DNA from: a virus
Direction: 5' to 3' (one strand)
DNA length: 64,000 nucleotides
Virus record (IMG/VR): IMGVR_UViG_3300037010_002464
The position numbers were made by a program, and so were the translations under genes. The notes beneath the pieces were generated by a model. The model did not search any database. It saw nothing but the letters and a program-made list of their open reading frames with translations, and was not told the DNA's origin. Positions 34,065-60,831 of this stretch are shown here, piece after piece. The stretch's first letter is position 1, and every line of letters begins with the position of its first letter.

Positions 34065-37000
34065 TTATAGCGAAGGTTGCTTGATGGTGAAGCCATGCTG
34101 AGTGCCTGTCAAATTACGGTCGTCGACAATTTGGCAGAGGATGCCGTCATAGTTAACGCCGCCAGGCAGCGCTGGGTTGTTGCCGTAAAATGACTCGACG
34201 TATAACGTATGAGTGTTACCTTGAATGTCCCACCTGATGGTACCGAATGATGGGTCGCTGTAGTAGTACGGCCCAAAGAGCACCTCGCCCGACGGGTAGT
34301 GGGTCAACGTAACCATAGTAGTCCAGTCGCCGTTATCATACGTGCGTTCAAAGGCAGGCGCGCCCGCCGCATAGTACGTATAGGTCAAGTGGTAGTAGTC
34401 ATTGCCGTTCTTACGAGCGATGACTCCGAGCTCAAGATCAGGTTGAACAAAGAACAGCGGCGTGATGTTGAAGTTAACAAACAGCGTGACATCGGGCGTT
34501 GATGTGCCCTTATCAAGGTAGACGCCGTAGCGCGTGTTGCCCACCTTTGAGGTGTCAACTTGAACTGTACCAGCGCCTGTTTCAACAAGAGCTGTGTGGC
34601 TGTTGTTGCCGTACAGGTCAACCCAAGCACCGCCGTTGCTAGCACGAGAGCTGCCAATTGGTGACAGTGCTGAGGCGGTGAATGGGCTAGTAAGCGTTTG
34701 TACCAGCTGATTCAGCTGGCTCCGAGTGCCGACAAACAGGTCATCGATGCCCATGTCGCCGAAGGTAGTCGTGTTGCTGATCGTTACGCTAACATACTCG
34801 TTGCCTGGGTGGTGGAAGCCGATGTAGTTCTGCAACCCGCTAGCTTGAGCCAAGCTATGCTTCAGCACGACCTCCTTAACCGTGCCCGTCGTGTCTGTCA
34901 ACAAGAGCTTGACATAGCCGCCGTCACCGATGTCTGTTGTGTAGCAGCCAAATGCTGTAATTGGCGAGTCAAAGGTGAAGGTCGTTGGACCGCTAAGCGA
35001 GAGCCAACGTTGGCCTGCAACGGTAGTGTTACGTTGGCCTGTAGCCGACGAGCTAGCGATGACAGCTGAACCTGTAACCGTGCAGGTGATCAGCGAACCG
35101 TCGGCCTCATCGACAAAGTTGAGAACCAACGGGGTCGCCGACCCCGATGTGAAGCTTTCAAAAGTCTCTTCACGGAACTTGAAATGCCTGTTACGCAGTG
35201 CGTTGCGCGCATCGCTAAACGTGCTCTGATCAGTAAAGACTTCGAACTTACCTTGAGTCAACAATGTTGTCTGGCGATAGATTAACTGAGCGCCGCCGAC
35301 AATGGCGTGACCCACACCCTTCAAGTTAGCCGCACCGTTACCCAGCGACTCGGCCACGATGTTTGCGCCGGCGCTGTCTGTTGCAATTTGAAAGCGTAAT
35401 GTCAGGAGATTATTGTATCGGTGATTGATGCCAAATGAACGAGGCACGTCCATCTTATGCCAGGTGTAAAGCTCCTCGCCTGCATATGCATCAGGGATAT
35501 TAAAGCCGCTGGCGGGATCTTGCTCGCCGGCCGCTGACGAAACAGGGTAAGCACGGATCCACCGGGTTTGACCCTCAAATTCATATGGGGTCTGAGCGGT
35601 GAAGGCTGCTGTCGGTAGGGTGTAAGCGCCGGTGTAACGCTGCGTGCCTCGAGTCAAACGCACGTCAGACAGGTAGTAGCTGAAGGTGCCTGTTCGGTCA
35701 GACTGACCAACGACAACGAGCGAGAAGTCAGGGTTCGAGTAGTTAACGCCGGTAACCGAGCCGGTTGCAACCTGCGCACCGTTAACAAAGAAGGTCATGA
35801 ACTGACCACCAGACCCGGCATTCAATGTAAATGCTACATGGTGGAACTGGCTATTAGCAACGGATATGCTGCCGATGAAGCGTTGATTGAGCCAGGCTTC
35901 GAGCACTGTTTGACCTGGTGTCGTACTAGCATGAGCGTAGATGATGCCCATGCCTGGTGTGTAAGCCGAGCCTGTGCTGCTGGCACCCTGGTTCCACGGC
36001 GTGCTGGTGTTACCATAGCCGTAGATCCAATACATGATGGCAGTTTTACCGTACGGCTCGGAAGCACCTACTTCAGGACGCACCCAAGCTTCAAGCGTGC
36101 CTACTTGCGATCGCAAGTAGAACATTGTCGGCCAAATCAGCTTGATGGCATGCTCACTGTTGTTCGGAGTCACGTGGAGCGATGACGTGCCCCACTTTGA
36201 AGCATTAGTGCTCGCTGAACAGTTTGAACCTGTTGAGCTCCAGGTACCGCCTAAAGTGCCGCTGTTCGGGAACGCGGTTGCGCCGTCTGTTAGCCCGTCA
36301 AATGAGAACTGTACTAACGTACCTACGTTTGAATACGGCGTTGGCTCGCGCATCCAATGGCTAGCCGATGGGGAGAATTGGGTGTCTCGATAGATTAAAC
36401 CGTCGGGTAGGAAAATGATCGGTGTTTCACTGTCATTGGTTAGTTGGTTTACACCTTCTACAATGTTTGTGGAATCTGAGTCAAAAATTTCAGGCGAAGG
36501 TACAGTGGGAATAATCGAGTTTGTTGATGAATAGCCAAAGCGCAAGCCATCAACAATAGCGGGATCGGTGTCAAAGGCAATCGAACGGGCCCAACCCCCA
36601 AATGTAAACTTAGTGTAGCCTCCATCTGTATAGCTGTGCTGCACGTCGGGTGTACTTTGCAGTAATGTACCTGTACCGTTCAAGCCTGAGTAGACGCCTA
36701 CAATTGTACCCATGAGCACAAACAGCGAGCATTCATTGATGAAGCCGTCAACTACATTGATGTACTTTGGGTCATTGCTAAGGTTCTGCAGCGCGGTCCA
36801 GCTGTAGATGCCTGGGTAGATGCCCTCGCCTGACTTGTAGTAAAAGTCAGGCGCAATCTCAGGGCCGTCAGAATAGCATGCACGAACCCAGCTAGGAGCC
36901 TGCACGCCGTAAATGTGCGGGTACGGTGGTCCAGACGGTACTAGCGGGCCTGAAATGCCACGCGAATCTGTGCCATTGTTGAAGTAGTCGTCAACCAGGT

Positions 37001-38639
37001 TATCAACTGTCGGCAGCGCACCTGACAGCGGGATCGGGTAGCCATTGGTCAGGTTATCGACCATCATGTTCGGATCAGCGCTTGAGATAGTCAGCGAGTT
37101 GATCGTAGCGTTTTCGCTCTCAAGCCTGCAAAGCTTCCACTGGCAGTAGACATTGTCAACGTCAGGCAAGCTGCAAGTGCCTGTAGCAGGCAATGTTTTA
37201 GTGCCGACGCCAGCGATCAAAGTAACCGGAGAGGCTGATGCATAGTAGAACGAGATAGCACCTTTGGTGCTTGTGCTCGGCAACGCAATAGTCATGCTCG
37301 CCTGACCGGTCGCAACTTTCAGCGCCGTTTTGCCTAAGTTGAGCACCGCGCCTGACGGTGAGTCGAGCGTGCGAACGTTGAACTGGGCCGTGCCGCCGGT
37401 AGCCTTGGAGCGCACAGCTACCGCATTAGTAAAGACGGTGCCGGGGTACAAGCTATCGTAGAACGAGCCCACGCTGACAGGTGCATAGGTGCCGGCAGAG
37501 GCATTAGCTCCTGGAATGAGGCCCTCAAAGTCCATGCCGTACTTAACACCGTCCCATTGAGACTGACTGCTTGTTGTCAACAAGCCGCCTAGCTCCCAGT
37601 TAAACGTGAGAATAGGAGCGTCAGGCAAGTCAGGCGGTGTGCCGAATTCCATGTGGTCAAAGAAGACCTCATTGTTGAAGCTGGCTTTGCCTGTTGTAAC
37701 CTTAATCGAGCGAGCAACCCCCGAGAAGTAAAACACAGTTTGGTAGAACGCATTCAAGAGACCTGCCGCTACGCCGCTAGGTCCGGCGAGCAACGTGCCA
37801 GTGCCGTTAACACCCGAGTAGATGCTAATGATCGGCGTTGCGTTGCTTACTGAAAGGCAGGTCCACACCGACCAACGATCCTTGAAACCTGCAGGCACGT
37901 TGATGTAAGCTACGTTCTGGTCCTCAGGCGGTGAGGATGTGATGCACTGCGTCGGAGCGTTAACAAAGGAGCCTACGCCGTTATAGGGCAGCTTGATGCT
38001 GTCAAGCGTGCCGTATACCATGTCATCGAAGCCAACGAGCTGCTCGTTGCCAGCTGTGGTACCAGGCCCTTGTGTAACCGTGAATCGAATCTCGTTGAAC
38101 GGGTGGACATCGTTCGTGTAGCCGAAGAACAGCAGGGTTGCGTTGATCCCGCTGGTATCAGGGCCTACTTCAACGTTGAGGTCAACTGGGAAGCCGTTGC
38201 TGTAGAAGCTGAGCTTGACCGTGCCGCCGGCCGCTCCTAGGTCGCCGAAGTCAGTTCCGTAGAAGCCAAAGGCTTGGGTGTGGCTAGTAAACTTTAGCGT
38301 GAACTCACCCGATGACTGCCACCACTTACCGTCTTCAAGCAGACCGCTACCTGAGTCAATGGTCGTGTTGAACCGACCTGGGAAGTCTTGCCCAACGGTC
38401 TTAATGCCTTGCACGTTGCCGTCAATCGGCGCGGCTTGTGTCAGCTGGCACGTGCTGCCGAAGAGGTAAAGCGTGAAGTCATCAGACGGCCTGCTACCCG
38501 CAATTGAGAACTCAAAGGTCTCCACCTTGGAGGTGGCGAGAGCCGTCATGAACTCGGCTCGCTTAGCGGCTGCAAGGCTGGTAACGGGGAACGTTCCGCC
38601 CGAGTTTGTATCTACGGCGTAGTAGGTAGTCGCGGTCAT
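34065..38639 (-). CDS. Large multidomain fibre/adhesin (PEP-CTERM-like repeats + LamG)
   Basis: AFGFYGTDFGD and AFGCYTTDIGD; two YINV...YSGxNGTGTLL...FxGxARSI repeats; LamG TLEAWV...HHVAFT...SDVRLTRG. Confidence 0.8.
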   Translation of the reverse strand: MTATTYYAVDTNSGGTFPVTSLAAAKRAEFMTALATSKVETFEFSIAGSRPSDDFTLYLFGSTCQLTQAAPIDGNVQGIKTVGQDFPGRFNTTIDSGSGLLEDGKWWQSSGEFTLKFTSHTQAFGFYGTDFGDLGAAGGTVKLSFYSNGFPVDLNVEVGPDTSGINATLLFFGYTNDVHPFNEIRFTVTQGPGTTAGNEQLVGFDDMVYGTLDSIKLPYNGVGSFVNAPTQCITSSPPEDQNVAYINVPAGFKDRWSVWTCLSVSNATPIISIYSGVNGTGTLLAGPSGVAAGLLNAFYQTVFYFSGVARSIKVTTGKASFNNEVFFDHMEFGTPPDLPDAPILTFNWELGGLLTTSSQSQWDGVKYGMDFEGLIPGANASAGTYAPVSVGSFYDSLYPGTVFTNAVAVRSKATGGTAQFNVRTLDSPSGAVLNLGKTALKVATGQASMTIALPSTSTKGAISFYYASASPVTLIAGVGTKTLPATGTCSLPDVDNVYCQWKLCRLESENATINSLTISSADPNMMVDNLTNGYPIPLSGALPTVDNLVDDYFNNGTDSRGISGPLVPSGPPYPHIYGVQAPSWVRACYSDGPEIAPDFYYKSGEGIYPGIYSWTALQNLSNDPKYINVVDGFINECSLFVLMGTIVGVYSGLNGTGTLLQSTPDVQHSYTDGGYTKFTFGGWARSIAFDTDPAIVDGLRFGYSSTNSIIPTVPSPEIFDSDSTNIVEGVNQLTNDSETPIIFLPDGLIYRDTQFSPSASHWMREPTPYSNVGTLVQFSFDGLTDGATAFPNSGTLGGTWSSTGSNCSASTNASKWGTSSLHVTPNNSEHAIKLIWPTMFYLRSQVGTLEAWVRPEVGASEPYGKTAIMYWIYGYGNTSTPWNQGASSTGSAYTPGMGIIYAHASTTPGQTVLEAWLNQRFIGSISVANSQFHHVAFTLNAGSGGQFMTFFVNGAQVATGSVTGVNYSNPDFSLVVVGQSDRTGTFSYYLSDVRLTRGTQRYTGAYTLPTAAFTAQTPYEFEGQTRWIRAYPVSSAAGEQDPASGFNIPDAYAGEELYTWHKMDVPRSFGINHRYNNLLTLRFQIATDSAGANIVAESLGNGAANLKGVGHAIVGGAQLIYRQTTLLTQGKFEVFTDQSTFSDARNALRNRHFKFREETFESFTSGSATPLVLNFVDEADGSLITCTVTGSAVIASSSATGQRNTTVAGQRWLSLSGPTTFTFDSPITAFGCYTTDIGDGGYVKLLLTDTTGTVKEVVLKHSLAQASGLQNYIGFHHPGNEYVSVTISNTTTFGDMGIDDLFVGTRSQLNQLVQTLTSPFTASALSPIGSSRASNGGAWVDLYGNNSHTALVETGAGTVQVDTSKVGNTRYGVYLDKGTSTPDVTLFVNFNITPLFFVQPDLELGVIARKNGNDYYHLTYTYYAAGAPAFERTYDNGDWTTMVTLTHYPSGEVLFGPYYYSDPSFGTIRWDIQGNTHTLYVESFYGNNPALPGGVNYDGILCQIVDDRNLTGTQHGFTIKQPSL

Positions 38640-40061: not shown

Positions 40062-41036
40062 TTACCAGGTATCGCTGATTTCAATGAAGCACCGACCTGC
40101 TGTGCTGCCTGTGTACACAACAACGCAAAGCAGGGTCTTGCCAGCTACTACGCCGGTGCCGGTGATGATGTCGCCGTGCGAGCCGGCGAGAGACGAGATC
40201 GGAGCCCACATGCCTGGCATCCGCCCGCGCACGACATGGTAGCTGCTTGCCACAATCTCAGCAAGCTCAACCGACGTTAGTAAGATGCCGCCTGTCAGTG
40301 GGTCGGGATACGTGTTTGACGAGCTAGACGCGCCCATCGTAGTTACGCTGGCATACTGGCCTGGAAGCCCCTTGTGGAACTTAACGCCGCCCTGACCTTG
40401 GCCCAAGTAGCCACGGCAGATGTAGTGCCCGCTGGCTGCCGATGAGGAGATGCTGTTTGAGCAAGAGCCGAACTGTCCGGTACCGGCCGTTGTGTTCACA
40501 GGCCCGAAGATAGCCGTGTTGTATGTGTCGCCCGGACGGTAGCTAATGAAGTCACCGAAGAAGAACTGCCCGTTGCTCGAGTTTGTGGTGTTGGTCGAAG
40601 CCTCCCACGTAGTCGGGGTCGAGGTTGGCTCGATGAACATGTACATCGCGGTAGCCGATGTAATGATTACCCACGCACGAGCGGTAGCATCAGCGGTGCT
40701 GCTCTTCATGATCGGGTAGCCAGCCGCTTGCGAGAATGACGTGCCTAGGTCTTGTGAAAAATTATTGACTCCCACTGAGTCGCTTGACATCGTTTCATAG
40801 CCGTGGAAACGCGCTGGCGTAGCGTTTGAGTCATCCAGGCGCAGGTATCGTTGATTGCCGCCTGCAGTACGGTAAACAGCGATATTGGTAGCGCTATACG
40901 GCTTGGTCCAACCAGAACCAGTAGACGAGCCATAGCCGCTAATGAGGACCGAATCTAGCAAGGCTAGAAGGCTACCGGTTGTGCCGGAAAGGGTCGGCGC
41001 ACCTGCGTCGGACGAGCGATAAACGCGAACAGTCAT
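40062..41036 (-). CDS. Tail fibre/tip protein, paralog 3
   Basis: YRSSDAGAPTLSGTTGSLLALLDSVLISGYG. Confidence 0.8.
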   Translation of the reverse strand: MTVRVYRSSDAGAPTLSGTTGSLLALLDSVLISGYGSSTGSGWTKPYSATNIAVYRTAGGNQRYLRLDDSNATPARFHGYETMSSDSVGVNNFSQDLGTSFSQAAGYPIMKSSTADATARAWVIITSATAMYMFIEPTSTPTTWEASTNTTNSSNGQFFFGDFISYRPGDTYNTAIFGPVNTTAGTGQFGSCSNSISSSAASGHYICRGYLGQGQGGVKFHKGLPGQYASVTTMGASSSSNTYPDPLTGGILLTSVELAEIVASSYHVVRGRMPGMWAPISSLAGSHGDIITGTGVVAGKTLLCVVVYTGSTAGRCFIEISDTW

Positions 41037-41049
41037 ATGATCTCCTAAG

Positions 41050-41056
41050 CTATTTA
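41050..41056 (-). promoter_or_regulatory. Late promoter core TAAATAG overlapping a stop codon
   Basis: CTATTTA followed by an AGGAG RBS. Confidence 0.65.
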
Positions 41057-42034
41057 CCAGGTATTGCTAGTCTCGAGAAAGGCTTTCCCGGTGACAGTTG
41101 TAGTTAGCGCGTTGTTGCGCGTGTAAGCGGTGACAACGAGATAGGTCTGTGAAGCGGTGCCATTGAACGTATCACCGTGGTTGAAGCCAGTCTGTTGCGG
41201 AGCCCACAAGCCAGGCAGGTAGCCGCGCGCCACAATTATGTCCGTGGCTAGGTTAGGATTTTGTTGCAACCCACGTTCAGAAATTTGAATCCGTTGCATC
41301 GTGATCATTCCAGAGACAGGATCAGGATACGATGTCACAAAGCCGTTCCACACGCCCAGGGCAAAGTCCGAGTAGTTATTGCTGGCAAGGTACCGCATGG
41401 CTGACTTATAGCAACCGATTGACCTCTTTAGCTGCAGGATGCCGCGGCAGATGTAGTGGCCAAGATGACCTGCAGCCGGTGAGCCGCTTGAGTTTAGCTG
41501 TGCAAAGTTACCCATGCCAGCGGTGCTCGAAGTTGAGCCGATGATCATTGTGTTGAACTGGTCACCAGAACGATAGCTAATAAAGTCACCAAAGAAGAAC
41601 TGTCCGCATGATGAACCGGTTGTAGAACCTGCAGCCCACGCATTTCCAACCTCAGGGAAGAAGTAGAAGCAACGGTCATTACCCGCTAGGATCCAACCCG
41701 ACGTGCCGCCGCTGGTCTTTCGCAAGTACAAGCCACCCGATACCTGCGCATCAGTTGGGAACTGGTTAAAGCCTGTGCTCAATCCGGTCATTGACTCAAA
41801 ACCTACCACGCGTACAACTTGCGTGTCAGTATCGTCAACTCGGATGTAGTGCCTGTTACCGCCTGGTGCCCGGTAAACAGCAACATTGGTACCTGAATAG
41901 TCCTTGGTCCAACCAAGGCCTGTTTTTGAACCGTACCCTGTGACCAAGCATGCGTCAAGCAGCGCGATGAACGAACCTGCGCTGCTTGTCAGAGTCGGCG
42001 CGGAGGCATCGCTGTCATAGAAAGTTGTTGCCAT
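41054..42034 (-). CDS. Tail fibre/tip protein, paralog 2
   Basis: YDSDASAPTLTSSAGSFIALLDACLVTGYG. Confidence 0.8.
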   Translation of the reverse strand: MATTFYDSDASAPTLTSSAGSFIALLDACLVTGYGSKTGLGWTKDYSGTNVAVYRAPGGNRHYIRVDDTDTQVVRVVGFESMTGLSTGFNQFPTDAQVSGGLYLRKTSGGTSGWILAGNDRCFYFFPEVGNAWAAGSTTGSSCGQFFFGDFISYRSGDQFNTMIIGSTSSTAGMGNFAQLNSSGSPAAGHLGHYICRGILQLKRSIGCYKSAMRYLASNNYSDFALGVWNGFVTSYPDPVSGMITMQRIQISERGLQQNPNLATDIIVARGYLPGLWAPQQTGFNHGDTFNGTASQTYLVVTAYTRNNALTTTVTGKAFLETSNTW

Positions 42035-43053
42035 TATGCGTACCAGTTATCCGTTAGTTCGATGATGAAAGGGGCAACACCGTTGCTGCTGGTATAGTAG
42101 AACGTAAGGCCTATAAACTGGCGACCTGCATACGCGCCTGTACCGTTCCAAATATAGCCTGAATTTTCAAGACCACCGTTGATAACCGACGCAGCATATG
42201 TCAGGCCACCATAACCTCCTGGCAAACGGCCACGAATCAGCCATTGCACCAAATTGGTAGAATTTTCAGACTGCTCAGCAAGCTCAATGCCCACAATACC
42301 TACTTCGCCCGTACCCTGCTCAGGGAAACCCAAGAAGCCCGTAGAGTCAGGTGCCATGATAGTCATGCCGTTGACCATGCCGGTGACTTGGCATGCACAA
42401 GGGTGAGAGATCTTAGCACCGTTGTAGTTGCGCGCCATCCAGTGATTGGACATCGTTGTCCCCCAGGTTGATTCAGAGCCTAAGCCTTGATACAGTGTAT
42501 TTGTCAGGTTGGTCAGCAGGAAGCAATTGTACGTGTCCGTAGTCTGCTTGTGACTCTTGATCTCGCCAAAGAACCACATATCAAACGCTTGGTTCAAGCC
42601 AGAACCGGTGATTTGTGTATAGACAGCCGACGAGCTAGCGCTGCCGCACATGAAGTAAAACGCGCGGTCATGAACGATGGCCATCCACGGGCGCGCGGTT
42701 GCGCTAACTGTTGAGCTTTTATTAACGGTCTGCCCGTTTGTTGCTTGAGCGACGCTTGGAAACGGATTCGTGCCATCATCCGTTGCGTCAGTCATTGTCT
42801 CATAGCCGCGCAGCTCGGCAAAGGCGGCTGTCACAAAAGTAGCTGAATCATCAACCATCAAGTAATAGCGGGTGCCGGTTGCTGCACGATATGAAGCGGT
42901 GTTGGTACCTGCAAATGCTTTTGACCAGCCAGCGCCAGGCTGCGAGCCGTAACCGTTCACAAGCACAGCATCGAGCAGCGCGACAAGCGCGCCGGCGGTG
43001 CCGCTCAAGACCGGCGCTCCAGTATCTGTTGACTTATAAAGGCGAACTGTCAT
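42034..43053 (-). CDS. Tail fibre/tip protein, paralog 1
   Basis: YKSTDTGAPVLSGTAGALVALLDAVLVNGYG. Confidence 0.8.
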   Translation of the reverse strand: MTVRLYKSTDTGAPVLSGTAGALVALLDAVLVNGYGSQPGAGWSKAFAGTNTASYRAATGTRYYLMVDDSATFVTAAFAELRGYETMTDATDDGTNPFPSVAQATNGQTVNKSSTVSATARPWMAIVHDRAFYFMCGSASSSAVYTQITGSGLNQAFDMWFFGEIKSHKQTTDTYNCFLLTNLTNTLYQGLGSESTWGTTMSNHWMARNYNGAKISHPCACQVTGMVNGMTIMAPDSTGFLGFPEQGTGEVGIVGIELAEQSENSTNLVQWLIRGRLPGGYGGLTYAASVINGGLENSGYIWNGTGAYAGRQFIGLTFYYTSSNGVAPFIIELTDNWYA

Positions 43054-43214
43054 ACAGTAGGTGGTGTGTAGTTTGAGTTGGAAAACTGCAGGATCAAGCT
43101 GTCACCGGCTTGAGGCGTATATGTCAGGCTGGTCTGCTTAAGCACCAAGTTGAGCGGCATGGTAGACAGCCGAAGTTCGGCTGAAACTACAGCATTTGAA
43201 AAGCCATTGTTCAC
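43050..43214 (-). CDS. Small 54 aa protein filling an operon gap
   Basis: GTGA and ATGA overlaps at both ends; ends [23 protein letters not shown]. Confidence 0.45.
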
Positions 43215-44446
43215 GCTACGTCTCCTGTCACGTCCCAGGTATCTGAACCCACGTACATCGCTAGGATGACAGCGCCGCGGCGACCCGTCGCGCCCGCATA
43301 CCCAACGGGGATGTTGAGCGTCACACCGCCTGCTGGTGAAAGCGTAATCTGACCTGTGCCGACTTGTCGAACGCTGATAAACTGCCCGAGCGTGAACGGC
43401 ACGGTCGAGTTGAGTGGCACCGACACGATACCTGCACCTGACACATTGATGCGGATTAAGCCACCGGCGTCAGCAAGCAAGAAGCTCTCAGTTGTCGATG
43501 TAGAGTTCCGAAAGGCGATGGCTGTTGCCCCGCCTGCTGGACCGGTTGGGCCAGGACCTCCCATGCCGTTAGCGCCGGTCGGACCCGTCGGACCACCGAA
43601 CGCTCCTGTTGGGCCAAGCGGGCCTGTTGGGCCGGTGACATTTGAAGCAGCGCCGGTTGGGCCGGTGACTGAGTCGCCGGTTGGGCCGGTGATGCTTAGG
43701 CCGTTAAGGCCGGTTGGACCTGCATTCCCGGTTGCGCCCTTAGCGCCAGTTGGGCCTGTCAAAGACGGTCCTGTTGGGCCGCGGGCGCCGGCAGGACCAG
43801 CCGGGCCTGTAGCCAGGATCGAGCCAGTGACCGAAACACCGAAGCCGAACAGGTTGCCCTCGATATCCCACTCGTTGGCACCTACCTTCGTGACTGAGAC
43901 CTTGCCGTAGCGTTGGCCGATCTGGAGGGTGCCGCCAGGCGAGTTGAGGGTAACCGAGCCGTTCTTTGGGGTGATAAATGTAGGGTCAGTGCCTACTTGC
44001 GACGCCACCACGGTCGTGCCGATGGGGAAGTTAACCGTTGCGTCATCAGGAATGACCAGCGATGCATTGACTCCACCTGTGCTGTTAAAGCGGAACAAGT
44101 AAGAGACATCCGTGATGACAAGCTCGTAGTTAACGGCCTTCGTGCGGATACGGGGCGACGACAAGTCAAAGTAGGTACCGCTGTCAACTACGGACGGGTA
44201 TTCGATGGTGTCTCGGGTGGCGTTGTAACGTACAGGGCTCGAGCCGATAGGGATCCACGTGTCCCGGGCGGCGTTCATGATGTAGGCTACATCCTCCTCC
44301 AGGTCTGCAACGATCTGGCCACCGTAACGGCGAGGTGAAGTCAGGTAGTCGAGCCGCTCAGCCGTTGTCGCAAACGAGCTATCGATGTCAATCGGAACTG
44401 AGTCCTGCCGCTTATACTGGAGCGGAAAGAGAGTAAGCGCAGCCAT
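43211..44446 (-). CDS. Collagen-like fibre protein with duplicated globular domains
   Basis: GPT/GAT triplets flanked by two copies of a ...FxxG...QVGT...VTLN.P...W(D/E)xxG domain. Confidence 0.85.
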
Positions 44447-46359
44447 TAGATGAAGACCCTGTAGTGGTTCGTGATCGAGAAGGGCTCAACCGGGGTATAG
44501 GTGTAGACTCGGTAGGTTATGGGGCCGTACCCATTATTGCCGTACACTTGCATCGAGCTTTCTACAAAGTTGCCCTTAACTTCAGAGTCAGCGAGCTCTT
44601 GATAACGCACGGAGGCAACCGCTCGCCGGTCCGCTGGGTATGCAAAAGTTACGCTAGGTGAGCCAGGCGGGATCGTAATGACAAAGTTCGGAAGAATCGA
44701 CCCACCGATGGCTACACCGGCTGAATCCACCGTAGCATTTACGTCTGAGCTAAACGTCGGTGTCAGGTTGTTTCGCACGTCGGCGCCGGTCATCGGCGCG
44801 CCTTCAGATGGCGAGCCATAGTATGCCAGCCATTTACCTACATAAGAGATGGAATTTGAGGGCGCTGTACCTGCAAGAATATGGCCAGTGCAATCCTCAA
44901 CGCCCATGTTGTTGAGCTTGCAGTCGCCCTCGTTATAGCTCGTCGTACCCGAATAGACAACAGGCGAGAGCGTCTGTTGTATAAAATTGTCGGTGTTCGG
45001 GTAGCTAGTTGCAAGCAGCACCGAGTTCTTTGACAGCGTAGTGCCGTTTTCAGGGCCACCGTCCCCTGGGTTGTAGCTTCGGTTGACCTCGATGTCCAAG
45101 AACGTGCCGATCTCAGACACAGTAATTGAACCGATTTGATAGCTGTTCAGCAGCGGAATCTGAGATGACGGGTCCGGGTCAGGGATGCTGTTGCCTGTGA
45201 TGCCCATTGACGGCGCAACATAGCCAGGAGGCAGGGTACGCTGCGAGACTAGCAGCACAAACTGCGAGAATGTCAAGCCTTGAGTGAAGGTAAAGCCCTC
45301 ATCGACCGCGCCGACGGAAGTGCCGATGACCTCAACGTCTTGGTCAAGCGGGCCCATGCCTTGACCGCCCATGCCTGCGGCGCCGAAGCGGTCAATGTCA
45401 AGCTGAATCGAGACCTCAGAGAGGATCGTGCCGACCTTTAGCTCGCCTAGCTGCGTTGCGTTGGACGGCGGACCCTGGTACAGCACGCCGTTCACGCCGC
45501 AGAAGATGTCCTTGCCGAGCGAGAAGTCCCAGTTCCACTGGTCATTGTAAAGGATGCCGTCCTGCAGGTACTCGACCACGTCTCCGACGGCGGCTTCATG
45601 CGTAGAGATGCCGATCGGCCACTTCATGGCGTCAACGGGGCTTGCGAGTGCGGCGGTTGACAGGTTGATGTTGGTGACGCACACGAAGGCCGGAATCGGC
45701 TCTTGGGCGATCATCGCTGTCGAGCCAGCCTCGAGGTTGACCGGCGAGCTGTAGCGGCCAGTGTTGATGACGATGTTCGTCGCCGAAGTCAGCAGGGTGC
45801 CGTCGTCAAGCCTGATCGCTTTCAGGTCCTCGCCGTAGGTGATGTAACCCGCAGTGACGTTGACGTTTAAGCCCACCTGCGAGCCGAAGCTCCGGTGCGT
45901 GATGACTTGTGTGCTCGGGCCAAACGAAGCGGCGAAGACGCGGCAGCACTGCTTCCAGGTCGTCGAGTCCCAGTAGTACATGATGTGCTCGTTCGTGTTG
46001 AACCAGCACTGGTCAACACGTTGGCCTGTAGGCGCTGTCGGGCCGTAGGTGACCGACCACGGCGTGTAGCCCTTGGTCACATGACCTGTAGCCAGGTTGA
46101 TGTCCCAATACAGCTGATAGGTGATCAGCGAAGGAGGCGCGCCCCAAATAGGCAGCCAGTTGAACGGGCCCCATGACTGGGACTGGTTCACGCGCTCCTC
46201 GATGAGGTAATCCTTGTCACGATACGCGGCAGCCACGATCAACCACGGCGACGTGATGTTCACGTTTACGGTGCTATGGGTGTTGTTGTAGGTGAGGAAG
46301 TCGGGCTTGGACAGGATAGACCGAGCGCGAACGATGCCTTGACGAAAGTTGAGTTGCAT
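44446..46359 (-). CDS. Virion structural protein; N-terminal half paralogous to 48349-49716
   Basis: QGI...WGP...LYWDIN.AT...EPIPA shared. Confidence 0.8.
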
Positions 46360-46368
46360 AACTAGCCG

Positions 46369-46372
46369 CTAT

Positions 46373-46375
<3 letters not shown>
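46369..46375 (-). promoter_or_regulatory. Late promoter core TAAATAG
   Basis: CTATTTA overlapping the upstream stop. Confidence 0.65.
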
Positions 46376-48348
<1,973 letters not shown>

Positions 48349-48352
<4 letters not shown>

Positions 48353-49716
48353 TGTGGAACGATCATCCAAGAGATCAGCGATGTATCAGCCGCCTGAACA
48401 GCACCGAGATAGTCTCGAGAGGTAATCGTGAAGCTGTTTTCAAGCTTCACGATTGAGTAGCTGCAACCGATGGTGCCGCCGTCTGACAGCCGGTTGACAA
48501 ACACAAGGTCAGAGTCGCCCATCGTAGCTGTGACTGTAGCCGTACCGTTGACAAGCGTAGTGATGCCGACGGTTGTCGTAGTTTGCGGCGCTGGGCCAGT
48601 CGGACCTTCGGGACCCGTTGGCCCAGCAGAACCGTCTGCCCCTGTCGGGCCAGCGGCTCCAGCTGGGCCGGTAGAACCTACACCCCCTAAGGCTCCGGTC
48701 GGGCCGGTAAGGCCGCGCGGGCCCGTCGGGCCTGCATCGCCGCCACCAGGGCCAGTAGGACCGACAACCGAAGACATGTTGTCCAGCATGAAGCTGAGCA
48801 ACAGCGACTTGTGGCCTCGTACCACGCCGACGGCTTGCGCGATGCTATTGAACGGCCGGGAGGTCGTAACGGCGCCGCCTGAGTCGAGCCAAAGCAGCTT
48901 GCCGATGTCTTCATCATCGAAGTCAAACTGGTCATTGATGACCACGCCGCTCGACACGACATGTGCAGGCAGACCTGTGCCTGTTGCCTGCCGAACATAG
49001 CCAGACGCCCACCGATCAAGGTCAGGGTCAGCGACTACGAGTGCACCTGGCGCTTGAATGGCGACAAATGAGCCGGCTGGGATCGGCTCAGCGGCCAGCG
49101 TGTACTCCTGCTCGGCATCGAGCGAGACCACGTTGTCGAAGCCGCCGACTATGACCTTGAAGCCGTTGGCCGAGTTGATGAAGGTGCCGTCAAGCGGGTC
49201 TTGCACGCCGCGGCCGCTCAGGCCGTACACGATGTAGCCGGCGCTAGAAGGAGTGGCAAGACCTACCTGTGACGCAAACGGCCAAGGCTCTACGGCGAGG
49301 TTCAGCACGTGGCCAGCAAACACTCGGATCTTAGGGACCCAGGCGCCGTCGTAGCCGTAGTACATGACCTTTTCTGTCGTGTTGAAGTAGTGGAGGCCGT
49401 TCGTAACAGTCAACGGCATCAACGGGCCATACTGCGGCGCCGTAGTTGTGAAGCCGCGTGAGACAGCGGCTGTTGCGGTGTTGATGTCCCAATAGAGCCA
49501 TGCGTTGCCTGTTGTCGGCAGCGGGCCCCAAGCGTGCGAGACGTTATATGGCTCGTCAAGCAGGTAGTTTCGAGTCTTGTGAGCGGTCGTAGCGAGGAGC
49601 TTTTGATCCGTGACGTAGATGTCAACGTAAGCTCCGTCCATCTGAAGAAACAGGCGCGCATTGCCAGGCAGGGCGGTCTGTCCCTTAAGAATGCCTTGAA
49701 TGTACGGTACCTGCAT
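48349..49716 (-). CDS. Virion protein with a short collagen-like tract
   Basis: [23 protein letters not shown]...; first gene after late promoter 49780-49786. Confidence 0.85.
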
Positions 49717-49742
49717 GAAGACCCTCTTAAAATGCTTCTATG

Positions 49743-49811
49743 TGACAGCCATAGATATAATGTCTGTCGGTCAATCCCTCTATTTATGCATAGAGGGCTG
49801 ACAGCTATAGA
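49743..49811. promoter_or_regulatory. Divergent control region: late core TAAATAG (-, 49780-49786) in a hairpin, flanked by 13-bp direct repeats
   Basis: TGACAGCCATAGA (49743) and TGACAGCTATAGA (49799); CCCTCTAT/ATAGAGGG arms. Confidence 0.6.
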
Positions 49812-49822
49812 ATAGGATACAC

Positions 49823-51589
49823 ATGCCGTATAGCTCAGAATCGGGTAAGCCGATCATCAAAGCCGTCCTCCAACGGCTCGCAAGCCGTCGCAAGAATGAA
49901 GAGCTCAAAGCTCTCGACATTGGTGCGGGTAGTGGGACCTACCCGAAGCTCGTCAACCAGCTCTTTCCAAAGATCGCTTGGACAGGGGTTGAAATCTGGG
50001 AGCCGTATGTCGAACAGTTTGGCCTCAACGAGCTATATGACCAGCTGCTAATCCAGGACGCGCAGTCAGCCATGGCTTGGCTGCTCACCGAACAGCAGCA
50101 TCTTCAGCGCTTCGACCTGATCTTCATCGGTGACGTGCTTGAGCACATGACACGACCTGTTGCGCTGTACGTGCTCAACATGGCGAAGCAGCTGCTCAGC
50201 GAACGTGGCATGCTGATTGTGTCGGTGCCTATCGGCGACTACCCCCAAGGCGAGTACTTGGGCAACCCGCACGAAGCGCACGTTGACACCTGGTTGACCC
50301 TTAAGGAGCTAGAGCTGGCGTTAATGCCCGAGTCTGTCAAGAGCGGTCACATTGGGCCGTGGTCATCACGGGCTGTGCAAGATAATGAGATCGGCGTGGG
50401 CTTCTACTACGCATCGCATATCTACGGCACGCTTCGACCTAGCATTGGCGCTTACCTGATTTGCAAGAACGAGGGTGAGTTCATCAATCGTTGCTTAGAC
50501 AGCCTGGATGACTGCAATGTCGTTATCGCTTGCGACACCGGCTCGACCGATGACACGCTTGCCAGGCTCAATACGTATGCCGAGTCGCCTGACTTCGGCC
50601 CAGAGATGCAAGTGCACGAGCTTTGCGTCTCTCCTTGGCGCTTTGATGACGCGCGCAACGCCGCGCTCAGCTTCATGCCGAGCGACATCGACTTGTGCAT
50701 CTCAATCGATGCCGATGAGACTCTCGAAGGCTCATTCGTGCCTGACCTGCGCAAAGCGTGGTGGGACACCTTCTGGCAAGGTAAAATCATCGACCGGGTC
50801 TACCACTCGTTTTCGACCCACTGGAACTGGGACAAGCCTGACGAAGCCCCGAACGTCTCGAACCACTTCCATGAGCGGATCCATAGCCGGTTCGGCTACC
50901 GCTGGTTCCACCCAGTGCATGAGAAGCTGGTAGCGAGCAATGAAGCTTGCGCGATCTGGCGCACTGGCCTGCTGATGAAGCAACAGCCTGACAATAGCAA
51001 GAGCAGGTCATCCTACTTGCCGCTGCTCGAACAGGCTGTCAAAGAGGACCCGACCGACTGGAAGCTGTGGTCCTTCTTATCGAGCGACCTCGCTGCAGCC
51101 GGACGAATTGATGAGGCTCTGGCAGCCCTTGAAACTTGCGGCCAACAGCCTGAGGCTGACAAGGCGTTCATCTGCTGGCGTAAAGCAGGCCTCTATGAGC
51201 ACAAGGGCGACATCGACAAGGCCTTGGTTGAGCTCGAAAGCTCAACCAAGCTGAAGCGAATCCGTGAAAGCTTCGTGCTGTGGGCTGAGATGCTTGAACG
51301 GCATGCCAGGCCAGCACAGAACGCCTGGCATGCAGCTCTTCGCTGTGAACAACCCACCCAAGGCTACATGCGGCGCGAGGACGTGTGGACGCCTGAGTTC
51401 AAGGCGATGCTCGAAGAGAAGGTGGACTGGGAGCCACCTAACTTTGTCTACAATGCAGGCGGCGAGCTGCTCAAGCTCTATAACGCGGGCTCGATCGGCG
51501 CCGATGAGTACTTGTCGGTGATGAACGCGCTCGGCGCCGCCATCGATCCAGCAACATTCAAAGCCTCAGAGGCAGAACGGAAGACCTAA
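49823..51589 (+). CDS. SAM methyltransferase + GT2 glycosyltransferase + TPR fusion
   Basis: LDIGAGSG, GVEIW, GDVLEHM; ICKNE, DTGSTDDT, PWRFDDARN, IDADE, WFHPVHE; helical TPR-like tail. Confidence 0.9.
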   Translation: MPYSSESGKPIIKAVLQRLASRRKNEELKALDIGAGSGTYPKLVNQLFPKIAWTGVEIWEPYVEQFGLNELYDQLLIQDAQSAMAWLLTEQQHLQRFDLIFIGDVLEHMTRPVALYVLNMAKQLLSERGMLIVSVPIGDYPQGEYLGNPHEAHVDTWLTLKELELALMPESVKSGHIGPWSSRAVQDNEIGVGFYYASHIYGTLRPSIGAYLICKNEGEFINRCLDSLDDCNVVIACDTGSTDDTLARLNTYAESPDFGPEMQVHELCVSPWRFDDARNAALSFMPSDIDLCISIDADETLEGSFVPDLRKAWWDTFWQGKIIDRVYHSFSTHWNWDKPDEAPNVSNHFHERIHSRFGYRWFHPVHEKLVASNEACAIWRTGLLMKQQPDNSKSRSSYLPLLEQAVKEDPTDWKLWSFLSSDLAAAGRIDEALAALETCGQQPEADKAFICWRKAGLYEHKGDIDKALVELESSTKLKRIRESFVLWAEMLERHARPAQNAWHAALRCEQPTQGYMRREDVWTPEFKAMLEEKVDWEPPNFVYNAGGELLKLYNAGSIGADEYLSVMNALGAAIDPATFKASEAERKT

Positions 51590-51592
51590 GTA

Positions 51593-52147
51593 GTGTTTCA
51601 TTACATCTACAAAACTACTTGTTTAGTTACAGGTCGATATTACATCGGCATGCATACTACCAAGAAGCTCGAAGATGGCTATTTGGGCTCTGGGAAGTTG
51701 ATCCGTAGGTCTATTGAAAAATATAGATCGGATCAACATGCCAAGATCATCCTCGAGTATTGCCAGAGCTTAGATGAAGTAAAGCGACGTGAACGCGAAA
51801 TCGTCACACATGCGTTAATTGCCGATGACCTATGCATGAATTTGAAAATCGGTGGTGAAGGTGGCGGTGAGCGCGGCGTTAAACGATCAGCTGAAACGCG
51901 GGCACGAATGTCGGCTTCAATGAAAGGCATTCCTAAAAGCCCCGAGCATGCTGAGAAAATGTGGCAAGCTAAAATAGGCACAACCGCATCCGCAGAAACC
52001 CGTGCCAAAATGTCAACATCTCGGATAGGGAAGAAATTGCCCTTCAGTGCTGAGCACATTGCAAAACTAACAGAAGCACGCCAAAACCGCCGCGATGAAG
52101 GTCGAGACAAGCATAATCTAGGACGTAAATTTCCAAGGACCGAATAA
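51593..52147 (+). mobile_element. GIY-YIG (Seg-like) homing endonuclease with NUMOD3 repeats
   Basis: YIYKTT...YYIGMH...YLGSG, NLKIGGEGG, SAETRARMS/SAETRAKMS. Confidence 0.9.
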
Positions 52148-53235
52148 TGAAAGTTTCTGTTTATACAATTGCCCTCAATGAGTCCAAGCATGTGAACCGC
52201 TTCATGGACTGCCTGGTCAATGAGGCTGATGATGTCTACGTGCTTGACACGGGCTCCACAGACGACACGGTAAAAAAGCTCCGAGCACGCGGCGCTATAG
52301 TCAAGACGGGCGTCTTCTCTCCGTGGCGCTTTGACACGCCGCGCAACGCTTCGCTCGCTATGGTGCCTGCAAGCACCGACATCTGCGTCTGTATCGACCT
52401 TGACGAGGTCCTGACACCCGGCTGGCGGGCGGCCGTGGAGAGGGCTTGGGTGCCTGGCACGACACGCCTACGTTACAAGTACGCATGGAGCCACAACGCC
52501 GACGATACGCCGGCTACCACATTCTACTACGACAAGATCCACCAGCGCAAGAACTACCGTTGGGTCAAGCCTGTGCACGAAATCCTTCAGCTCTACAACG
52601 AGCCCGAGGTGCAAGCGTGGTCGGAGGAGTTCATGCTTCACCACTACCCAGACGTGTCCAAGAGCAGGTCATCCTACCTGCCGCTGCTCGAGCTAGCTGT
52701 CAAGGAGGAGCCGCATGATGACCGCAGCTGCCATTATCTGGGCCGTGAGTATATGTACTATGGCCACTACGACAAGGCTATCACAGAGCTGCAACGTCAC
52801 CTGAGCTTGCCGTCGGCTACGTGGGCCTCCGAGCGCGCGGCATCGATGCGGTTCATCAGTCGCTGCCACATGTTCAGAGGTGACTATGAGGCCGCCAAGG
52901 TCTGGGCGCTGAAGGCGTGCGCTGAAGCACCTAATGACCGCGAGCCGTGGTACGAGCTAGCCAAGGTCGCCTACTTGCTGAAGGACTTCAACCTGCTATA
53001 CAGCTCAGCCGAAGCAACCCTGAAGACCGGCGAGCAAGGCCGTACCTACATCAGCGATCCAGAGGCATGGGGCTACTTGCCGTATGACTATGCGGCGCTC
53101 GGAGCTTGGAACATCGGCTTCAAGAGCAAGGCGCTTGAGCACGGCCGACTGGCTTATGAGCGGGCGTTGAAGCTGCAAGAGCCTGAGCAGGTTATTGAAA
53201 GGCTCAAAACAAACATCACATTCTACAACAGCTGA
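52147..53235 (+). CDS. GT2 glycosyltransferase with TPR repeats
   Basis: IALNE, DTGSTDDT, PWRFDTPRN, IDLDE, WVKPVHE, YLGREY. Confidence 0.92.
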   Translation: MKVSVYTIALNESKHVNRFMDCLVNEADDVYVLDTGSTDDTVKKLRARGAIVKTGVFSPWRFDTPRNASLAMVPASTDICVCIDLDEVLTPGWRAAVERAWVPGTTRLRYKYAWSHNADDTPATTFYYDKIHQRKNYRWVKPVHEILQLYNEPEVQAWSEEFMLHHYPDVSKSRSSYLPLLELAVKEEPHDDRSCHYLGREYMYYGHYDKAITELQRHLSLPSATWASERAASMRFISRCHMFRGDYEAAKVWALKACAEAPNDREPWYELAKVAYLLKDFNLLYSSAEATLKTGEQGRTYISDPEAWGYLPYDYAALGAWNIGFKSKALEHGRLAYERALKLQEPEQVIERLKTNITFYNS

Positions 53236-53249
53236 ATACAATCAAATCT

Positions 53250-54092
53250 ATGTCTGAAATTGAACAAGCATTCCGCAAGATCTACGCTGATGTCGCTGCC
53301 GGCCAAGAGTGCTCACCCCGTGGCCAGAAGGTCATCGAGGTCGAGAACTATGCTTACGAGCTGCCGCCTTATGCTCGCTTCGCCAACTTTGACGCTCGCA
53401 AGCTGAAGCTTGGCTACGTCAAGAAAGAGCTTCTCTGGTACCTGAAGGCCGACCCGTTTGACCTCAGCATCGTGGACGCCGCCTCTCTCTGGCAAGAGCT
53501 GCCCAACCCCGACGGCACCATCAACTCGCACTACGGCGCTCACGTCTTCGGTCGTGGTGATGATCAGTGGCGCACGCCGTTGAGCATCGGAGTTCCGTTG
53601 GCGCACAAGAGCCAGTTCTCGGCGATCATCGCTGAGCTGCAGCGCGACAAGGACTCTCGCCGTGCCTCGGCGACCATCCTCAATCGCAGCCACCTGCTCA
53701 ACCCAGCGACCAAGGACTTTCCTTGCACCTACGCCCTCAACTTCCGCATCCGCGACAACGAGCTAAAGATGAGCGTGCACATGCGCAGTCAGGACGCTGT
53801 CTTCGGCATGGGCAATGACGCGCCGGCTTTCTCGTTGATTCAAGAGATGGTCTACGTCTGTCTGCGTGACTTCGCTTACCCTGACCTGCAGATGGGCTCT
53901 TACCACCACATCGCCGACTCGTTCCACTACTACGAGAGGCACTTCGACATGGTGAAGGAAATCAATGCAGGCTCGGCCTTCACGCCCATCGAAGTACCCC
54001 GCATCCGTGACGCTAGCGAGGTAATCTACCTGCTAGGTAACATCAGCAAGGATTCCAAGCCGGGCGACTTCACCGCCTGGCTCAACTCTTAA
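53250..54092 (+). CDS. Thymidylate-synthase-family enzyme with dCMP-type signature (dCMP hydroxymethylase-like)
   Basis: DSRRA, DFPCT catalytic Cys; MRSQDAVFGMGND aligns with T4 gp42 RSND..FG..ND; SFHYYERHF. Confidence 0.85.
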   Translation: MSEIEQAFRKIYADVAAGQECSPRGQKVIEVENYAYELPPYARFANFDARKLKLGYVKKELLWYLKADPFDLSIVDAASLWQELPNPDGTINSHYGAHVFGRGDDQWRTPLSIGVPLAHKSQFSAIIAELQRDKDSRRASATILNRSHLLNPATKDFPCTYALNFRIRDNELKMSVHMRSQDAVFGMGNDAPAFSLIQEMVYVCLRDFAYPDLQMGSYHHIADSFHYYERHFDMVKEINAGSAFTPIEVPRIRDASEVIYLLGNISKDSKPGDFTAWLNS

Positions 54093-54936: not shown

Positions 54937-55842
54937 ATGCTATTAGAGATTATTGATACATCACAAAAGTTTGACAGAGCTATTAGGCTATGGAAAGTTG
55001 CTTGTGATGACTGCACAATAGAACAACTTAGAACATTCAATCAAATTCGTAACAGCGAACAACGATGGAACGGATTCCATATTTGTAAGCCTTGTGCAAC
55101 ACGAAGAACCAACAAGACCAAGACACAAGAGGATTATGCAATCGCTGGAGAGGCTGGGCGATTGGCAACCAAAAATAAACGCTTAGAAGAAATCGTGGGT
55201 GAGACTAAGGCAAAACGAATCAAAACGGAGTATACAGCTAAAAGATCTGGGAAAAATAATCCAAACTTTGGTGGCAAATTATCACGCGGATTCGCGGATA
55301 GACCTCTCAGAGGAAAATGGGAGGATTTGTTCGGAATAGAAAAAGCAGCTGACATGAAACTTAACATGTCAATTCGCAATAGCGGTTCTGGCAATCCAAT
55401 GTACGGTCAACCTACACCAAAGAAGGCCGGGTGTGGTATTAGCGGTCACTACAAAAACTTCTATTTTCGCAGCTTGCTTGAGTTATCAATGATGCTCATG
55501 TTAGAAGCAAATAGCATAGTTTGGATATCAGCAGAGTCTAAAAATCATCGTTTCAAATATATGATAGACGGAAGAGAACGATCATACTTCCCTGATTTCT
55601 ATCTACCGGCAACTGATGAGTACATCGAAATCAAACCGAAATCGCTTAGCAGATCTAGAGAGGTCCTAGCTAAACTTGATGCAGTACGAGCTACTGGGAA
55701 GAGAATAAAATTGCTCTCGGATGAGAATGTGAATAAAATCTCATATGCTAAGTTGATAAAGTTGATGGCTGATCAAACAATTGTCATTGACAATAGTAAG
55801 TTAAAAAGAGTTGAAAAATATGCTGCAAAACATAATTTGTGA
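54937..55842 (+). mobile_element. Free-standing TnsA-like PD-(D/E)xK homing endonuclease
   Basis: FRSLLEL, RSYFPDFYL, IEIKP; N-terminal CxxC pairs; GKNNPNFG/GSGNPMYG repeats; AT-rich. Confidence 0.82.
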
Positions 55843-56401
55843 AGGTTTGGACAGGCTTGGTAAAAGCACGCTTGTTGACAACCTTAAGCAACGGCTCGGC
55901 CACTTCACCAGCCTGCATTACAGCAAGCCTGAGCTGCTGTCCTACTACGAGCTACGAGTCGGGCGGGGCAAGGCGCACGAGTTCTACCAGCGCGATTCCT
56001 TCGGTGGCATGTTCAAGCTTCTCGCTTCGGACGCTCGGGTCATCATGGACCGCGGCCACCTCGGCGAGATGGTCTATGCCCATCGCTATCGCGGCTATGA
56101 CGGCAGCTACGTGCTCGACCTCGAGCAAGGCAAGGGCGTTGACAACACCCTGCTCGTCCTGCTCGTCAATCATGACGTGGACCTCGAAGCAAGGCTCGTC
56201 GATGACGGCCTCGGCTTTGACTGGGGCAAGCGCAAGGAGGAGCAAGAGGACTTCATCACCGCCTTCCGCCGCTCCAAGATCAGCCACAAGGCGCTCATCA
56301 ATGTAGGACGACAGGGCCACTTCATCGACCAAGCGGAGATCATCGATGCTGTCTCCCAAGCCTACCTCAAAGCCGCCTGGTACACCAGCATCGATGCTTG
56401 A
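55820..56401 (+). CDS. dNMP (thymidylate-like) kinase
   Basis: IICEGLDRLGKSTL P-loop; IMDRGHLGEMVY. Confidence 0.88.
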   Translation: MLQNIICEGLDRLGKSTLVDNLKQRLGHFTSLHYSKPELLSYYELRVGRGKAHEFYQRDSFGGMFKLLASDARVIMDRGHLGEMVYAHRYRGYDGSYVLDLEQGKGVDNTLLVLLVNHDVDLEARLVDDGLGFDWGKRKEEQEDFITAFRRSKISHKALINVGRQGHFIDQAEIIDAVSQAYLKAAWYTSIDA

Positions 56402-60655: not shown

Positions 60656-60831
60656 TCTACTACTGTCCAGTTCATCGGCTGTAGCTCTGACGACTATGTT
60701 TCTTCGGCATCCTCATCATCCTCTTCTTTGCCGTGGACATCCCAATGCTGCTCATTGGCAAGATTCACGAGCTGATTCAAAAGTATCGTGCCACCCAAGC
60801 GGCAGCACCGTTCTTCCTGATTGGAGCAATC

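Follow-up and report, generated by a model that had tools for sequence, protein, structure and literature searches.

A candidate glycosylation system for collagen-like virion fibers, encoded divergently from the fiber genes of a phage

The 64,000-nucleotide stretch of DNA analyzed here (the window) comes from IMG/VR virus record IMGVR_UViG_3300037010_002464, a 133.9-kb viral contig with a CheckV completeness of 37%, and carries a module of collagen-like fiber genes set back to back with two glycosyltransferase (GT) genes (Table 1); the region has no match among GenBank phages by megablast. The fiber module comprises four genes on the minus strand (43211–49716), three of which encode Gly-X-Y triplets, and the enzyme genes lie on the plus strand, the two sets being separated by a gap of 106 bp. 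The open reading frame (ORF) list reproduces the gene coordinates, the divergent pairing and the 106-bp gap given in a preliminary description of this DNA, and Pfam and PHROG searches return the domains that it had assigned to the plus-strand genes (i.e., a methyltransferase-GT2-TPR fusion, a homing endonuclease and a second GT2-TPR protein).

Table 1. Features of the fiber and glycosyltransferase locus, with coordinates in the window
Feature	Coordinates	Strand	Domains, matches or basis
Fiber protein, 411 aa	43211-44446	-	C-terminal domain matches phrog_21978 and tail-fiber families
Fiber-module protein, 637 aa, without G-X-Y runs	44446-46359	-	Paralogous to the 455-aa protein over the latter's first ~300 aa
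Main collagen-like fiber protein, 665 aa	46373-48370	-	Pfam Collagen (PF01391) at 1.2e-45, 153.5 bits
Fiber protein, 455 aa	48349-49716	-	~300-aa N-terminal domain, collagen run, K1-lyase_C-type C-terminal domain
Divergent intergenic region, 106 bp	49717-49822	.	Two 13-nt repeats, hairpin, TATAAT box
Three-domain enzyme, 588 aa	49823-51589	+	S-adenosylmethionine (SAM) methyltransferase ~1-200, GT-A ~205-390, TPR-like ~395-588
Homing endonuclease, 184 aa, free-standing GIY-YIG/NUMOD3	51593-52147	+	Pfam; phrog_314 at 3.5e-38
SgtA-like glycosyltransferase, 362 aa	52147-53235	+	GT-A and TPR; Pfam Glycos_transf_2 and TPR; phrog_13126 at 5.6e-107
Thymidylate synthase homolog with 5-hydroxymethyl-dCMP (5hm-dCMP) synthase signature	53250-54092	+	PDB sequence search, alignments

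The 665-residue protein has 128 G-X-Y triplets, among which GPT is the commonest (39), with Thr at the Y position in 71 of the 128, and it is predicted to be the main acceptor of O-glycosylation. A single run of 17 triplets (residues 326–376), five of them GPT, is present in the 455-residue protein, which scores 21.6 bits against Pfam Collagen in hmmscan, below the cut-off of 27.2, and a borderline 27.0–27.7 in a second search; the 411-residue protein has 25 triplets, six of them GPT, in short interrupted runs of at most 7 triplets between residues 214 and 299, and gives no Pfam Collagen match. Triplet counts thus qualify the preliminary description of three genes dominated by Gly-Pro-Thr: three genes do carry collagen triplets, but GPT dominance is full only in the 665-residue one. 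That description did not mention the gene for the 637-residue protein, which lies between the collagen-type genes and whose product is 27% identical to the N-terminal domain of the 455-residue protein (E = 6e-37). The PHROG matches of the fiber proteins are to tail-fiber families, largely by way of the repeats. Both the 455- and the 665-residue proteins have orthologs in a related locus (L254), where the former occupies the same position. A further collagen-like ORF is found on the contig outside the window, at 119651–119824 (a 386-residue frame; Pfam Collagen, 29.5 bits), far from any glycosyltransferase gene.

The divergent intergenic region contains two copies of the 13-nt sequence TGACAGCyATAGA, at 49743 and 49799 (56 bp apart), which flank a perfect 8-bp hairpin (49776–49797) and have no further copy anywhere in the window. 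The first copy leads directly into a TATAAT box, which L254 shares. A sigma-70 promoter consensus and a terminator consensus were looked for in the 106 bp and not found.

In the 588-residue enzyme, Pfam places a class I SAM methyltransferase at residues 13–147 and Glycos_transf_2 at 213–316, followed by TPR; the methyltransferase part reaches the Pfam cut-offs for Methyltransf_12 (30.0 bits, cut-off 30) and Methyltransf_23 (27.9 bits, cut-off 27) and resembles, in Foldseek comparisons, the natural-product methyltransferases RedM, MfnG, SgvM and BamL. The two GTs are paralogs (35% identity over 240 residues). Of the motifs quoted for them in the preliminary description, DTGSTD, D-x-DE and W-x(3)-VHE are present in both, but F-x-x-ARN is found in the 588-residue enzyme only, the 362-residue enzyme having F-x-x-PRN. 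AlphaFold2 models of both are confident, with predicted local distance difference test (pLDDT) scores of 94.7 (362 residues) and 91.0 (588 residues), and both show a single GT-A domain followed by TPR-like helices; in the 362-residue model a beta/alpha domain (residues 1–170) precedes helical repeats (178–361), and in the 588-residue model the GT-A domain is preceded by a Rossmann methyltransferase. Neither the 362- nor the 588-residue enzyme contains a transmembrane segment.

For both models, the top Foldseek ranks are held by the peptide S-glycosyltransferases SunS and ThuS (1e-14 for the 362-residue and 4e-18 for the 588-residue enzyme), and the next glycosyltransferases, the wall-teichoic-acid and other GT-A enzymes TarP, TarS and RmlT, follow at ~1e-6; by sequence, the best solved matches of the GT domain are GmaR and SunS, both weak. 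SunS and ThuS (PDB: 7MSN, 7MSP, 7MSK) resemble the phage enzymes in their build, in which GT-A comes first and the helical-repeat domain behind it handles the peptide acceptor, and differ from them in sequence (15–19% identity) and, for SunS, in acting on a Cys residue of a small bacteriocin; no bacteriocin-type gene was seen among the phage neighbor genes scanned. Membership in the SunS family itself (TIGR04195) is ruled out, since the two enzymes score 19.3 and 22.8 bits with the NCBIfam model, whose cut-off is 350. Sequence and model comparisons together support the assignment of both enzymes to a soluble, protein- or peptide-glycosylating class of GT2 enzymes with helical repeats. The preliminary description had likewise placed them with protein-glycosylating enzymes and not with the T4 DNA glucosyltransferases, and this placement holds, given that the best fold matches are SunS and ThuS and that the 362-residue enzyme is a full-length homolog of a putative SgtA (see below). 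A T4-type DNA glucosyltransferase is excluded because it requires a GT-B fold and both models are single GT-A domains. PF09198 had no match in the contig, in a search whose controls also gave no match, and PF11440 was not searched.

A characterized enzyme with the same architecture is SgtA of Clostridioides difficile, a protein of 358 residues made up of a GT-A domain and four TPRs, whose gene lies directly upstream of bclA3 and which in vitro transfers beta-O-GlcNAc from UDP-GlcNAc, with Mn, onto Thr and also Ser of GPT-repeat peptides (PMC7157674). Six Peptostreptococcales genomes of ~4 Mb contain an ORF of 357–359 residues directly upstream of a GAT/GPT collagen ORF of 549–780 residues, and an exact-sequence cluster look-up names these proteins as C. 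difficile or Clostridioides GT2-TPR proteins. One of them, P0121, is a 358-residue C. difficile GT2-TPR protein encoded directly upstream of a 687-residue GAT/GPT collagen ORF; its database name differs, and we take it to be SgtA by species, length and position beside a bclA3-like gene. When the family profile of the 362-residue enzyme was aligned with P0121 by hhalign, the match extended over the full length (345 columns) with a probability of 99.5% and E = 2e-22, and the motifs DTGSTD, F..(A/P)RN, DxD and P(V/I)HE are in register. The two enzymes have in common a length of ~360 residues, a GT-A domain with C-terminal TPRs, solubility and a gene that adjoins a Thr-rich collagen-like gene (Gly-Pro/Ala-Thr in the case of SgtA). 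They differ in that the 362-residue enzyme has its much closer relatives (46–53%) in a viral clade and in a Bacillota subfamily other than that of SgtA, is a phage product, has as its partner a paralog that carries a methyltransferase, and has virion fibers instead of spore-coat proteins as its presumed acceptors; moreover, the phage GT genes are divergent from the collagen genes and not in tandem with them.

Linkage between collagen-like genes and this enzyme family across phages, named in the preliminary description as a check of its proposal, proved to be strong. The family, as gathered here, contains 5,680 protein clusters at E ≤ 1e-10 among the candidates scored, and matching stretches number at least 598 in viruses (IMG/VR) and at least 582 in bacteria. 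The locus search used a family alignment (a single-protein query gave 2 loci); a collagen ORF had to contain 15 or more triplets overall and at least one run of 8 or more, precomputed Pfam lists being prone to miss collagen repeats, such that a blank in them does not mean absence; and control viral loci were fetched with the small subunit of the window's ribonucleotide reductase. A collagen ORF lies no more than 10 kb from the enzyme in 50 of 82 viral loci (39 of the 53 that are at least 12 kb long) and in none of 80 control viral loci. The same is true of 51 of 80 bacterial loci, all of them from Bacillota. When neighboring ORFs were clustered all against all, collagen was the commonest neighbor family. 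The collagen gene is usually just upstream of the enzyme gene and on the same strand (47 of 50 viral and 49 of 51 bacterial cases), at a median distance of 1.2 kb in viruses and 80 bp in bacteria, and the link is seen in 23 of 35 viral GT clusters formed at 70% identity and in 11 of 17 formed at 60%. Actinomycetia phage DSL-LC01, the closest annotated cultured phage (44.6% identity), has two collagen-annotated genes 2–4 kb upstream.

Taken from the other side, the enzyme is present in 6 of 62 viral loci chosen solely by a (Gly-Pro-X)5 DNA pattern, a fraction that is a lower bound because the loci are short, and is absent from 919 kb of control loci. It was found in 5 of the 24 loci in which the fraction of Thr at Y is at least 0.4, as compared with 1 of the 38 below that value (Fisher p = 0.03). 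Only a minority of phage collagens thus have the enzyme nearby, and that minority is Thr-rich. Together, these counts support a genomic tie between the enzyme family and Thr-rich collagen-like genes, in phages and in Bacillota alike. Jumbo phages of the PaBG, Y3 and Dickeya groups have a GT2-TPR homolog, flanked by the genes for DNA ligase and prohead protease, but lack a collagen gene within 8 kb of it; the acceptor in these phages must therefore differ or be encoded elsewhere.

The second enzyme also has relatives in bacteria. In a FastTree phylogeny of 199 sequences, the 362-residue enzyme falls in a viral clade of 67 rows (type 1), and the GT part of the 588-residue enzyme falls in a separate, long-branched "type 2" group, where it is joined by the second GTs of another related locus (L008) and of four Bacillota loci. 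Fusions of the methyltransferase-GT2-TPR kind form a large family, making up most of the best 120 clusters listed, and many of them are on contigs that match in size those with type-1 homologs; the methyltransferase domain also has homologs in loci of Brevibacillus and Desulforamulus. In a Christensenellales metagenome-assembled genome (L255, 5251–11750), a gene for an 879-residue collagen with 179 uninterrupted triplets is followed by a type-2 GT and then by two type-1 GTs. This cassette adjoins flagellar motor and switch genes. Judged by sequence, phages and bacteria share a conserved two-enzyme cassette. What the evidence bears out is just that the paralogs fall into two subfamilies, each of them conserved, and that in one of these a fusion to a methyltransferase is frequent; the division of labor put forward in the preliminary description, with one enzyme priming Thr and the other extending and methyl-capping the glycan, is something that we infer. 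A viral precedent for such a multi-domain enzyme is A064R of Chlorovirus PBCV-1, which combines glycosyltransferase domains with a methyltransferase that methylates a sugar on a virion-protein glycan; it differs from the 588-residue enzyme in belonging to a eukaryotic virus, in having an N-linked capsid-protein glycan as acceptor and in its domain families. L008 and L254 have no endonuclease at this site, their two GT genes directly adjoining or overlapping one another; the homing endonuclease that separates the GT genes in the window is therefore a later insertion, and it is outside the pathway proposed here.

Taken together, the gene anatomy, homology, predicted folds and genomic co-occurrence suggest that the plus-strand enzymes are probably cytoplasmic protein O-glycosyltransferases that modify the phage's own, divergently encoded collagen-like fibers. 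In such a pathway, the TPR domain of the 362-residue enzyme would hold the unfolded or trimerizing Gly-X-Thr repeats, and its metal-dependent GT-A domain (in which the DxD motif reads DLDE) would move the sugar of a nucleotide-sugar onto Thr (and Ser) hydroxyls, initiating the glycan as SgtA does on BclA3. The 588-residue paralog would add a second sugar or serve other repeat contexts, its SAM methyltransferase would methylate the product (most simply on a sugar hydroxyl), and the glycosylated fibers would then be built into the virion. The glycans could stabilize the triple helix, provide shielding or mediate adhesion. Comparative support for the core of this reading, protein-glycosylating enzymes tied to Thr-rich collagen fibers, is strong; the exosporium-like hairy coat of the preliminary description is at most a possibility, the position of the fibers on the virion being beyond what sequence can reveal.

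A number of observations weigh against this assignment. The GT genes are on the opposite strand to the fiber genes and are co-oriented with genes of nucleotide metabolism, the first of which, the thymidylate synthase homolog, starts only 14 nt after the second GT gene; the order methyltransferase-GT, GT, thymidylate synthase homolog is, moreover, kept in L008, L254 and a 718-kb contig, whose methyltransferase-GT or GT proteins are 42–58% identical to those of the window. Pairwise identity between the 362-residue enzyme and P0121 (the putative SgtA) is just ~22–25%. About a third of the viral enzyme loci have no collagen gene within 10 kb, and although some of these loci are partial, those of PaBG and Erwinia phage Y3 come from complete records. 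Finally, just ~10% of randomly picked phage collagen loci hold the enzyme in the fetched stretch.

The thymidylate synthase homolog, in particular, raises the alternative that the GTs finish a pre-replicative hypermodification, glycosylating and methylating hydroxymethylcytosine in the phage DNA and thereby guarding the genome from host nucleases. The product of this gene has the catalytic Cys, an Asp at Cys-3 (the position of E. coli L143, as in T4 gp42), the conserved Asp at the D169 position and the N177D substitution, that is, the signature of a 5hm-dCMP synthase and neither that of a thymidylate synthase nor that of a 5-hydroxy-dCMP synthase (criteria: PMC13326640), and the phage DNA probably contains 5-hydroxymethylcytosine (5hmC). 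A thymidylate-kinase-like deoxynucleoside monophosphate (dNMP) kinase is encoded at 55811–56401, and the 134-kb contig yielded no further glycosyltransferase. The conserved 5hm-dCMP synthase-like gene and the kinase downstream make this alternative more serious than the preliminary description allowed. GT-A-fold phage enzymes that glycosylate 5hmC do exist, many of them encoded near ThyS homologs (bioRxiv 10.1101/2023.12.21.572611), and the present pair resembles both these metavirome enzymes and the T4 alpha- and beta-glucosyltransferases (which have a GT-B fold) in being encoded by a phage beside a thymidylate-synthase-type hydroxymethylase gene.

The described DNA-modifying GT-A enzymes are JGT/TarP-like, with R...DDD...EDY/F motifs (bioRxiv 10.1101/2023.12.21.572611), whereas the phage pair, which lacks a GT-B fold, matches SunS and ThuS about 8 orders of magnitude better than TarP (3e-6 for TarP against 1e-14 for SunS in the case of the 362-residue enzyme, as compared by published description and fold rank); in addition, both enzymes carry TPR, a protein-binding module unreported for DNA glycosyltransferases. 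The thymidylate synthase homolog is absent from all 81 other viral enzyme loci outside the window's own lineage, the Bacillota homologs encoded beside collagen genes are left unexplained by a role in DNA modification, and the enzyme family as a whole, unlike DNA glycosyltransferases, tracks collagen genes and not base-modification genes. Because the contig represents only ~37% of the genome (CheckV), a dedicated DNA-modifying enzyme may lie elsewhere. In those relatives of the lineage whose DNA was at hand, collagen fiber genes are also conserved on the other side of the GT pair; with fiber genes on one side and the thymidylate synthase homolog on the other, the pair lies where two modules meet, and local synteny by itself therefore does not decide between the two readings. 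On balance, we regard DNA as the substrate of these enzymes as unlikely.

A second alternative, likewise improbable in our judgment, is that the enzymes glycosylate proteins other than the fibers, such as capsid or tail subunits of the phage, or flagellin or surface proteins of the host during infection. GmaR, one of the weak sequence matches of the GT domain, is known as a flagellin O-GlcNAc transferase and is counted here in favor of such an acceptor, as are the homologs that in PaBG and Y3 are found among head and tail genes with no collagen gene nearby, and the bacterial cassette L255 beside its flagellar genes. That cassette itself starts with a collagen gene, however, and the adjacency to collagen genes across the family is strong and specific, with a bias toward Thr-rich collagens. 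Glycosylation of capsid and tail-tube subunits by phage-encoded enzymes is known in mycobacteriophages, according to the account of Freeman et al. (2023) given in PMC12619734. As far as that account goes, the mycobacteriophage systems resemble the one proposed here in role, a phage's own structural proteins being decorated in the host cytoplasm, and differ from it in that glycosylation there falls on the C-terminal ends of capsid and tail-tube subunits, collagen-like repeats being the predicted target here; the likeness drawn is one of role.

That the enzymes alter host envelope glycans (lipopolysaccharide, O-antigen or wall polymers) and so block superinfection is highly improbable: homologs in PaBG and Lu11 are annotated in envelope-glycan terms (with names such as "LOS beta-1,4-glucosyltransferase"), and papers on aquatic phages propose a superinfection or DNA-protection role for phage glycosyltransferases (PMC10202952, PMC7029224), but these annotations are transferred names, both enzymes are free of membrane segments, the neighbor genes scanned showed neither a Gtr-type flippase nor a membrane partner, and the fold, like the TPR domain, speaks for a peptide as acceptor. 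Modification of O-antigen of the Gtr type is ruled out by the absence of membrane parts.

Several other genes in the window may be noted. Directly downstream of the fiber genes are three tandem paralogs of 324–339 residues (40062–43053) that match phrog_9600 ("tail assembly") or phrog_9998, and a 1,524-residue minus-strand protein (34065–38639) with a Laminin_G_3 (concanavalin-like) domain and no PHROG match is probably a large fiber or baseplate component. Among the nucleotide-metabolism genes, a 301-residue ORF (54937–55842) with weak matches to DUF7487 and to TnsA-like endonucleases may be a second mobile endonuclease. An NAD salvage pair (59468–62283), in which a NAMPT-type phosphoribosyltransferase comes after a fusion of a cytidylyltransferase-like domain with NUDIX, is found downstream in L254 as well. 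A search with Pfam Gp23 returned only a small capsid-gene remnant; the assignment of the phage as T4-like therefore rests on indirect signs.

If the plus-strand enzymes do glycosylate the collagen-like fibers, the proposal reaches beyond this one phage. We lean toward the view that several phage lineages, among them freshwater actinophages and this large T4-like or jumbo group (at least 598 IMG/VR stretches match in all), make O-glycosylated and in part also methylated collagen-like virion fibers, using an enzyme cassette shared with the exosporium glycosylation of spore-forming Bacillota. Our literature search found no paper on glycosylated phage collagen fibers. Such fibers would constitute a widespread and so far unrecognized class of viral glycoproteins, and the role in DNA protection or at the host surface that is at present assigned to many phage "glycosyltransferase" genes would give way to one in fiber maturation. 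The proposal is testable, inasmuch as cultured phages with the same pairing exist (e.g., Actinomycetia phage DSL-LC01). Phages of "Ca. Nanopelagicales" likewise encode collagen-like proteins and a glycosyltransferase, which may belong to this family. It would also provide an evolutionary link between phage fibers and the BclA/SgtA exosporium system, and a compact set of enzymes (a glycosyltransferase, a second glycosyltransferase and a methyltransferase) for making glycosylated bacterial collagens. For the phages themselves, glycans on receptor-binding fibers could have consequences for stability and adsorption as well as for host range and immune recognition.

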